Of a stretch of 8,139 bases of DNA, positions 940 to 1,799 are shown piece after piece (position 1 is the first letter of the stretch; every line of letters begins with the position of its first letter). A program made the translations under genes and the position numbers. Location: the IMG/VR virus record IMGVR_UViG_2534682295_000017. The stretch is one strand, 5' to 3'. This stretch comes from a virus. Its lineage: Duplodnaviria > Heunggongvirae > Uroviricota > Caudoviricetes. The notes below the pieces were generated by a model. It saw only the letters and a program-made list of their open reading frames with translations, had not been told where the DNA came from and ran no database searches.

Positions 940-1173
940 ATGTTAAAATCAACTCTTATTGCTAAATGCCTTTATCAAAATCGCATGGTAAGCAGCATTT
1001 CAATAGGCGAGTCTGCAGTTAAAAGTATTTTCGAAGAGTACTTTCCCGGGCATGATTTTAATAAATGGAATACCAAATTACCGCCAGCAGTTTCAACGCG
1101 TATTCTGAAAGCAACCGAAAGAGCAAGTACAATTCGCGTTAACTATTTCATTAAAGATTTGTGGGATCTTTGA
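940..1173 (+). CDS. hypothetical 77-aa protein, convergent with the leftward operon
   Basis: ATG at 940 is preceded by AGGAGG (caggagggtgaATG). No recognisable motifs. The 3' end overlaps the convergent 135-aa gene by 23 bp, and the ORF lies within the likely DicF precursor region on the other strand, so it may not be expressed. Confidence 0.25.
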   Translation: MLKSTLIAKCLYQNRMVSSISIGESAVKSIFEEYFPGHDFNKWNTKLPPAVSTRILKATERASTIRVNYFIKDLWDL

Positions 1174-1558
1174 TATCCACAGAGCCTAAAGTATGTGCAT
1201 ATGGATGTGCTATTATGCGCCCTCGCAGATTTGCATCATTTTCTAAATTCACTGAACGAAACAGGGCATCAACAAGGCTCTGTACAATGCAAAGGCAATC
1301 GAAGACTGTCGCCGTTTCTGTTTTGATTGATGAAAGAACATGGCCATTCACGCAAACAGAAATTACCCGTTTATTAACATCGCTTTCCTGCTTTTGATTA
1401 TCAGAACCATATAGCCCAGAAAAAGCATTGCGCACATTACGAACCATATTATCGATGGTTTCTTTTTCTGCGGTACTAAGGTCAAGAGTAGCCAGTTGTG
1501 AACGAACTATATTCGATGCCATTTCCTGTAATGGCGTTGGTAAATCTTTAAATTCCAT
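1151..1558 (-). CDS. hypothetical 135-aa protein, apparent insertion between the ydfC-like gene and dicF
   Basis: Intact ORF with a GAGG-type RBS (cgaggctaataATG), 20 bp downstream of the 72-aa gene on the same strand. No family recognised. The ydfC-to-dicF spacing is about 890 bp here against roughly 370 bp recalled for K-12 Qin. Confidence 0.5.
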   Translation of the reverse strand: MEFKDLPTPLQEMASNIVRSQLATLDLSTAEKETIDNMVRNVRNAFSGLYGSDNQKQESDVNKRVISVCVNGHVLSSIKTETATVFDCLCIVQSLVDALFRSVNLENDANLRGRIIAHPYAHTLGSVDIKDPTNL

Positions 1559-1580
1559 TATTAGCCTCGTTGGTTAGCTA

Positions 1581-1799
1581 TTAACGTGGGTATGTAATCA
1601 TTCTGGCAATGCTTAATGCCGCTGCTTTTTCCAGATTGGTGATATCCTGCTCCAGAGCGGACAGATTTTCAGCCTGCTTAGCCCTGGCTTCATTGGCCCA
1701 TTTCAGGTCCTGCACCGCCTTAATTTTCTGGTGCATCCACTCATAAAGTTCATCATCGGTATAGTCTGGCGCGATGATGACGGGGTCTCGTTTCTGCAT
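1581..1799 (-). CDS. small 72-aa protein, YdfC-like by size and position
   Basis: ATG at 1797-1799 (minus) preceded by AAGGAG (aaggagccgacATG). The 72-aa length and operon position match Qin ydfC. Sequence identity to YdfC not verified from memory. Confidence 0.5.
   Translation of the reverse strand: MQKRDPVIIAPDYTDDELYEWMHQKIKAVQDLKWANEARAKQAENLSALEQDITNLEKAAALSIARMITYPR

Follow-up and report, generated by a model that had tools for sequence, protein, structure and literature searches.

The 135-aa gene in the DicA-controlled operon of prophage Sp9 is one half of a conserved convergent module with an RNA-associated partner

We analyzed an 8,139-nucleotide stretch of DNA from a Caudoviricetes record (IMGVR_UViG_2534682295_000017; hereafter, the window), in which a division-inhibition operon controlled by a DicA-type repressor carries a gene for a 135-amino-acid (aa) protein, ECs1763, between ydfC and the small RNA DicF. 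Sequence comparison across prophages shows that ECs1763 belongs to a conserved module of two convergent genes, of which it is the half in operon sense; the other half, ECs1762, lies on the opposite strand and encodes a 77-aa protein found in association with RNA in enterohaemorrhagic Escherichia coli (EHEC). The first-pass annotation of this DNA had treated the 135-aa open reading frame (ORF) as a lone cargo gene, a description that its conserved antisense partner contradicts. Our reading, which is tentative and to which we give a probability of about 0.45, is that the two are partner genes under opposite regulation, in which a protein made upon derepression acts on an RNA-binding protein expressed from its own promoter. 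As a kind, the module would thus be a pair of oppositely regulated partners within a prophage immunity region; its members are already known as hypothetical proteins, as members of PHROG families, and as a diagnostic marker.

The convergent pair is conserved across prophages

In the window, the coding sequences of ECs1763 and ECs1762 converge and share 23 bp at their 3' ends (Table 1). We surveyed this arrangement in other prophages; all counts given here are among the fetched loci listed, at most 80 per scan. When the 77-aa protein was used as seed, 89 of 90 loci contained a convergent gene encoding the C-terminal domain (C-domain) of ECs1763, and the sole exception ends at a contig edge. When the C-domain was used as seed, the 77-aa gene was present in 13 of 14 loci. 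A profile search of genome contigs yielded 4 loci, one of which (L021, Bacteroidales) was spurious and was rejected. The overlap was 23 bp in 92 of the 108 paired loci, 26 bp in 10, and 51 bp in 3, and in 3 loci the 77-aa gene was disrupted or partial; the number of distinct protein pairs was 51. Paired loci with named hosts come from Serratia, Klebsiella, Yersinia, Proteus, and Photorhabdus; further genera, among them Dickeya, Citrobacter, Hafnia, and Erwinia, come from protein searches.

In all non-E. coli loci inspected, the 77-aa gene occupies an antisense position in the early-left region, beside a cI-type repressor gene, and the gene that converges on it is a leftward gene of 77 to 203 aa that always has the C-domain at its end. 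The flanking genes vary greatly between paired loci (RdgC, YfdP/DUF2303, or DicF/DicB contexts). Moreover, loci L033-35 contain a divergent 77-aa subtype (MTRSDVILRCLL...) together with a divergent C-domain subtype (...DEQINPDL) and a 51-bp overlap. Because these divergent subtypes are still paired, the arrangement outlasts deep divergence.

ECs1763 is a fusion of two modules

The ECs1763 ORF is intact and is preceded by a ribosome-binding site (GAGG, 8 nt upstream of the ATG), as the first-pass annotation had stated. Its further statement that the protein has no recognisable family stands for Pfam and NCBIfam; the protein does belong to PHROG 1363, which has no function annotated (E = 4.8e-47, residues 1-130 against positions 1-138 of the 139-position profile, a full-length match). 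The first ~63 residues match four further PHROGs and residues 55-128 match PHROG 23433. Accordingly divided, ECs1763 consists of an N-terminal module (N-module, residues ~1-55, window positions 1394-1558), a disordered linker (residues 51-60), and the C-domain (residues ~62-135, positions 1154-1375). The N-terminal ~50 residues (MEFKDLP...FxGLY) begin many Escherichia and Salmonella proteins of 124, 133, 208, and 212 aa with unrelated C-termini. The C-terminal ~75 residues are homologous to free-standing proteins of 75-80 aa (profile E-values down to 1e-32) from Serratia, Klebsiella, Raoultella, Hafnia, Dickeya, Yersinia, Citrobacter, Erwinia, Pectobacterium, Enterobacter, and others. With the C-domain profile, E. 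coli members gave E-values as low as 1e-35 and those of Serratia and Klebsiella as low as 1e-32, and the ECs1763 C-domain is 37% identical to a Yersinia protein (E = 1e-12). Conserved motifs in the C-domain read VNG...T..AVAADY...LE.EAN.SGKTI.H..F..FGS, and ECs1763 carries the motif that we use to define the module, VNG...T..A...D...LE.(E/D)AN..G.(T/I)I.H....GS. ECs1763 is therefore a fusion of an E. coli-type helical-hairpin N-module with a widespread Enterobacterales C-domain, as judged from these alignments, and not the single novel domain that had been supposed.

The AlphaFold2 model of ECs1763 (mean predicted local distance difference test score [pLDDT] of 75) is consistent with this division. 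It predicts two separate domains, with a helical hairpin (H8-23 and H32-50) joined by the linker to a C-domain made of a β-hairpin (65-70, 73-79) and helices (85-100, 104-111). The input for this model was a deep alignment mixing relatives of the N-module and the C-domain; a shallow alignment of E. coli sequences only gave a pLDDT of 47 and was unusable. Against a diverged E. coli allele, the C-domain has a ratio of nonsynonymous to synonymous substitution rates (dN/dS) of 0.38 and the N-module one of 0.57. Both halves are thus under purifying selection, and ECs1763 is a real gene.

The C-domain is also found with other N-terminal partners. In three Yersinia-type loci it is fused to a YdfC-like N-segment in a single protein of 191-203 aa (35% identity to YdfC, E = 1e-10), and in other fusions it follows a ClpX-type zinc finger (PF06689, E = 1e-9). 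Because of these fusions, we regard the C-domain as the constant element and the N-terminal modules as interchangeable. The YdfC-like fusion also lends indirect support to the earlier proposal that the 72-aa and 135-aa genes act as a pair; the conserved partner of the 135-aa gene, however, is the 77-aa gene. A side observation on the N-module of the window is that it is mosaic, with residues 8-32 following the version of the 124/133/208-aa proteins (PxPFQEMAxNIVRSQLATLDLS), while most other 135/201-aa alleles carry the alternative version PKEIQTIAATTLGDSLVKIDPA. In some comparisons the synonymous divergence (dS) of the N-module is 0.39-0.44 while the neighbouring C-domain is near-identical.

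Searches against characterized families were negative. Scans of Pfam, NCBIfam, and PADLOC gave no significant match for the 135-aa, 77-aa, YdfC, and 99-aa proteins (the last is described below) or for the alternative cassette proteins, and PADLOC-DB 2.0 returned 0 families at E <= 1 for the 135-aa, 77-aa, YdfC, and 99-aa proteins. Sequence searches of the PDB with single sequences and with profiles found no match for either module family, and Foldseek against the PDB found no fold match (best E = 2.5). The sole Foldseek match in BFVD was a 52-aa N-module-like protein of phage phi191. When 1.84 billion representatives were searched exhaustively with a hidden Markov model of the 135-aa family, 65 matches resulted, all of them N-module or same-family relatives.

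The 77-aa partner is strongly conserved and RNA-associated

Members of the 77-aa family are nearly always 77 aa long and 55-96% identical, and they occur in at least 9 genera (Escherichia, Klebsiella, Raoultella, Dickeya, Xenorhabdus, Salmonella, Morganella, Yersinia, and Serratia, plus Proteus and Photorhabdus). With a dN/dS of ~0.1 vs ~0.4 for its partner, the 77-aa gene is a real gene that is more strongly conserved than the 135-aa gene. The protein has a grand average of hydropathy (GRAVY) of -0.13 and an isoelectric point of 9.5, and is overall not markedly hydrophobic.

ECs1762 was significantly enriched in the total RNA-associated proteome (TRAPP) of EHEC Sakai, and the tagged, plasmid-borne protein showed polynucleotide kinase (PNK) labelling above background after UV crosslinking; according to the authors, it has no detectable RNA-binding domain (PMC7618764). 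The product of the 77-aa gene was probably also detected in strain EDL933, as pY69 (PMC3681748). ECs1763 was picked in 2009 among three EHEC-specific genes and described as of unknown function (PMC2713265), and was later used as an EHEC PCR marker (PMC4060028, PMC5702452). In the literature that we searched we found no functional study of ECs1762 or ECs1763, and no description of the domain dissection, of the cross-genus convergent pairing with an RNA-associated protein, or of the cassette structure reported below.

Both genes lie in a 634-bp block that K-12 Qin lacks

The distance from ydfC to DicF is 890 bp in the window, which confirms the first estimate, and 340 bp in K-12, for which roughly 370 bp had been given. 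Alignment to K-12 Qin by blastn placed window positions 797-926 on K-12 1649189-1649062 and positions 1561-1799 on the directly abutting K-12 1649061-1648823; the segment missing from K-12 is exactly 927-1560, a clean single block of 634 bp. This extra length had been ascribed to the 135-aa ORF alone, and the block in fact holds both the 135-aa ORF and the convergent 77-aa gene. The gene had also been described as inserted. Since K-12 keeps the leader of the 77-aa gene (797-926) and has neither module gene, this is probably the wrong polarity, and K-12 Qin is best read as a deletion derivative. Apart from the block, the K-12 dicBF operon shares with the window the switch genes, ydfC, the DicF seed, dicB, and ydfD, with flanks of 93-95% DNA identity, and differs in its ydfA/ydfB segment, which is unmatched here. 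The block was found in 646 of 5,426 complete E. coli genomes, mainly of EHEC and Shiga toxin-producing E. coli serotypes, and both of its genes are annotated "hypothetical protein" in every one of the 646 carriers, which bears out the first description of the 135-aa gene as uncharacterised and variably present.

Within E. coli, the site behaves as a cassette slot. The ~140-bp leader of the 77-aa gene (Shine-Dalgarno sequence included) is ~94% conserved in other E. coli cassettes, where it precedes different small antisense ORFs that fall in PHROGs of their own. For instance, a 133-aa variant has another C-terminus and an antisense ORF of 64/76 aa. Because leader and N-module are conserved in all variants, the slot has two constant borders and a variable middle, which consists of the C-terminal domain and the small antisense gene.

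An inverted repeat in the E. coli leader, GCCGG(14 nt)CCGGC (858-881), is homologous to an element that precedes the 77-aa gene in other genera. In those genera (L011-L115), ~80 nt upstream of the gene, an inverted repeat GCCTG-14-CAGGC is accompanied by the invariant sequence GGTGGTATCTT, which contains an extended -10-like TGnTATCTT, and the cross-genus block also has a second inverted repeat whose 3' arm spans the Shine-Dalgarno sequence, with apparent compensatory changes. We considered a structured 5' untranslated region or pseudoknot and dropped this reading: RNAalifold gave no consensus structure and the minimum free energy z-scores were ~-0.4 to -0.6 on both strands. An extended -10 promoter with an operator explains the upstream block at least as well. 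The E. coli leader also contains a direct repeat of TTCACCCGTG at ~868 and ~895 (868-904), and one allele group, L084 with 5 loci identical to it, has lost the 27 bp that separate the copies.

The surrounding operon is of the Qin dicBF type

Positions 600-2300 of the window (1.7 kb) match Sp9 of E. coli O157:H7 Sakai and its prophage counterpart in EDL933 (O-island 57), both at 99.9% identity. By sequence, we identify the window as O157:H7 prophage Sp9. The division-inhibition operon runs leftward on the minus strand and has the DicA, DicC, ydfC, DicF, dicB, ydfD order of the Qin dicBF operon (Table 1), and positions 2242-2300 are 95% identical to the K-12 dicA-ydfA spacer. The promoter-proximal genes ydfA (DUF1391) and ydfB of Qin were not found, in that blastn against the K-12 ydfA/ydfB segment gave no match; a plus-strand zinc-ribbon pseudogene stands in their place. 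DicF and dicB influence cell division, metabolism, phage resistance, and EHEC virulence regulation. The DicF of the window fell short of the Rfam gathering threshold, with 43.5 bits (E = 1e-7) against the 48 required. Its 5' 20 nt are exactly those of K-12 dicF and its terminator hairpin has diverged, so it probably works in a DicF-like manner though under the curated cut-off. Between DicF and dicB, positions 500-652 of the minus strand gave a weak partial match to STnc100 (25 bits vs a gathering threshold of 47, E = 0.006).

Table 1. Features of the window around the convergent module.
Feature	Positions	Strand	Basis or remark
DUF1482/YdfD-like gene	90-281	-	
dicB, 62 aa	278-466	-	Pfam PF05358, E = 6e-37; NCBIfam NF049927
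DicF small RNA variant	641-690	-	Rfam RF00039; same leftward transcription unit, downstream
Leader and probable promoter region of the 77-aa gene	797-939	+	
634-bp block with both module genes, missing from K-12 Qin	927-1560		blastn, junction sequences
77-aa gene, ECs1762 / WP_000920491.1	940-1173	+	ORF, GGAGG ribosome-binding site, PHROG 10348
Coding 3'-end overlap of the 135-aa and 77-aa genes, 23 bp	1151-1173		coordinates
135-aa gene, ECs1763 / WP_000394552.1	1151-1558	-	ORF, ribosome-binding site, RefSeq, PHROG 1363
ydfC, 72 aa, annotated YdfC	1581-1799	-	22 bp upstream of the 135-aa gene
Candidate leftward promoter, TTGACC-18-TAAATT	2335-2306	-	promoter scan
DicA-type repressor gene	2434-2841	-	NCBIfam NF007257, E = 1.6e-72
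DicC/Cro gene	2918-3145		divergent from the repressor gene

The gene order first reported (repressor, YdfC, 135-aa ORF, DicF, dicB, YdfD-like) was recovered except for its 99-aa ORF. This ORF (ECs_5719, PHROG 21318, 1871-2170, minus strand) lies opposite a frame for a 66-aa CxxC...CxxC zinc-ribbon protein (1892-2092, plus strand), which 9 other E. coli loci and locus L026 carry intact and which has a premature TAA at codon 14 (1931-1933) in the window. In summed pairwise comparisons of 6 alleles, the zinc-ribbon frame had 57 synonymous and 13 nonsynonymous differences and the 99-aa frame 10 and 65. The 99-aa ORF is thus probably a shadow of the plus-strand zinc-ribbon gene, which would be a second antisense small gene within the leftward operon. 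In L026 (2980-3513), the C-domain gene is directly followed by the zinc-ribbon/97-aa overlapping ORF pair; in the window the same pair lies upstream of ydfC, and the order differs.

A proposed switch between two partner proteins

We propose that the 77-aa gene, antisense to the operon, is read from its own promoter, so that its protein would be present in the lysogen, while the 135-aa protein would be made solely once the DicA-type repressor frees the leftward operon. The induced 135-aa protein would then bind the 77-aa RNA-binding protein and neutralise or redirect it, and convergent transcription over the overlapping 3' ends would simultaneously reduce expression of the 77-aa gene. The outcome would be a switch between a lysogenic and a derepressed state of RNA control, for which the neighbouring DicF/dicB transcript is a candidate target. 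The 77-aa protein was recovered from EHEC cultures and its gene runs opposite to an operon under repression; the gene must therefore have a promoter of its own, and lysogens probably contain the protein. Since the 135-aa gene reads in the direction of the repressor-controlled operon, its product should be made on derepression, which is plausible for ECs1763 from its position. An effector with a modular antagonist fits the data because the 77-aa protein is the more conserved and RNA-associated of the two, and the C-domain protein is variable and carries different N-modules. The timing of expression, the physical contact between ECs1763 and ECs1762, the antagonism, and the RNA targets are steps that we infer.

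Several observations weigh against this proposal. The pairwise divergence of the partners correlates (r = 0.78, a value reached in 0 of 500 permutations), which is no evidence of contact because adjacent genes co-diverge regardless of interaction. The association is also breakable: a 201-aa E. coli variant consists of the C-domain with a 66-aa extension opposite an unrelated 63-aa antisense ORF, with no 77-aa gene; L026 is the only C-domain-seeded locus without one; and two loci (L112 and L114) combine an intact 135-aa gene with a 77-aa gene that carries a frameshift. Within E. coli, a C-domain dS of 0.39 is found beside a near-identical 77-aa gene (dS of 0.07), and this inequality indicates that recombination separates the two genes. 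The TGnTATCTT block conserved in other genera is missing in E. coli, where the promoter of the 77-aa gene is putative. Finally, the PNK assay of ECs1762 relied on plasmid overexpression (PMC7618764).

Alternative explanations and known systems

Some of these same observations would be expected if the two were independent accessory genes co-travelling in one mosaic block, the 135-aa protein acting alone or with YdfC and the 77-aa gene being an unrelated lysogen-expressed gene. Lambdoid early-left operons are known hot spots for accessory genes, the 201-aa variant and L026 have the C-domain but no 77-aa gene, recombination falls inside the pair in E. coli, and the YdfC-like fusions suggest a link to YdfC and not to the 77-aa protein. 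We nevertheless consider this rather unlikely. Mosaic phage genomes usually split functionally unrelated neighbours, whereas these two genes co-occur almost obligatorily in both search directions, in many genera and between very different flanks, and keep their overlap even in divergent subtypes. The conserved overlap (23-51 bp) could instead point to pairing mainly at the RNA level, in which the overlapping 3' ends make the transcripts mutually antisense in the style of lambda cII/OOP and the proteins are secondary; the adjacent DicF is indeed produced from the same leftward transcript by RNase III/RNase E processing (PMC5069750). The module resembles cII/OOP in having convergent units with overlapping 3' ends in a lambdoid immunity region, and differs in that both partners encode conserved proteins. 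Both protein sequences are conserved over large distances, with dN/dS below 1, which speaks against this alternative, and the strongly conserved C-terminus of the 77-aa protein, FIKDLW, fixes the overlap, so that a separate RNA-level explanation is unneeded; we find it very improbable.

Pore-forming colicin operons combine an SOS-induced colicin gene, an opposite-strand immunity gene with its own promoter, and a lysis gene. By analogy, the induced 135-aa protein could be a harmful effector, in host takeover or in killing together with DicB/YdfD, and the constitutive antisense 77-aa protein an antidote that shields lysogens from leaky expression. The layout is alike, with a repressor-controlled sense gene converging on a small opposite-strand gene that would need its own promoter and with lysis and division-inhibition genes downstream, and the E. 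coli cassettes, in which a constant N-module and leader enclose a C-terminus and small antisense gene that vary together, recall polymorphic toxin/immunity loci. The likeness is one of layout only. The scans run, Pfam and NCBIfam among them, found no similarity to toxin, colicin, immunity, or toxin-antitoxin families; the module has neither sequence nor fold similarity to colicin systems; and the 77-aa protein looks soluble (GRAVY as above), unlike the membrane-type immunity proteins of pore-forming colicins. Being more conserved and RNA-associated, it also makes a better effector than dedicated antidote, and the 135-aa gene stays intact where the 77-aa gene is frameshifted or absent. We therefore regard a toxin/immunity pair as unlikely.

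Type II toxin-antitoxin systems share with the module two small adjacent genes that co-occur and co-diverge, one of them with variable N-terminal fusions. Such systems are, however, co-directional bicistronic operons, and because the module genes are convergent, not co-transcribed, and without a family match (no Pfam, NCBIfam, PADLOC, or PDB sequence or fold match), the pair lacks the basic features of this class. In addition, the more conserved partner, ECs1762, was tolerated alone when overexpressed from pBAD24 in EHEC Sakai (PMC7618764).

A further comparison is with Nun of phage HK022. Nun is an RNA-binding exclusion protein that is expressed from the prophage, is encoded beside the immunity region, and has no convergent partner gene. 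The 77-aa protein is likewise a small RNA-associated prophage protein encoded near a repressor gene and apparently made in the lysogen; its sequence has no visible arginine-rich motif and no homology to Nun, and the module does have a convergent partner. As far as sequence can tell, the module carries none of the homology that defines colicin, cII/OOP, or Nun systems.

A more far-reaching form of our proposal is that the pair constitutes an undescribed prophage RNA-control switch, in which a lysogen RNA-binding protein acts on prophage or superinfecting-phage transcripts and an early-left anti-factor switches it off at induction. The RNA-binding protein would silence leaky early-left RNA of the DicF/dicB type or exclude phages in a Nun-like manner, and the different N-modules (helical hairpin, YdfC-like, ClpX-type zinc finger) would link the anti-factor to different host or phage machinery. 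This form is speculative, and we think it distinctly unlikely.

Significance

ECs1763 has served for more than 10 years as an EHEC PCR marker with its identity unexplained. The present analysis identifies ECs1763 and ECs1762 as halves of one conserved convergent Enterobacterales prophage module, which in Sp9 is positioned directly upstream of DicF/dicB, and thereby joins two orphan observations in one testable hypothesis. If an RNA-binding protein and its derepression-induced partner do operate here as proposed, they would add a new layer to what separates lysogenic from induced gene expression in lambdoid prophages, and would account for the appearance of the "long untranslated region" upstream of dicF in K-12.

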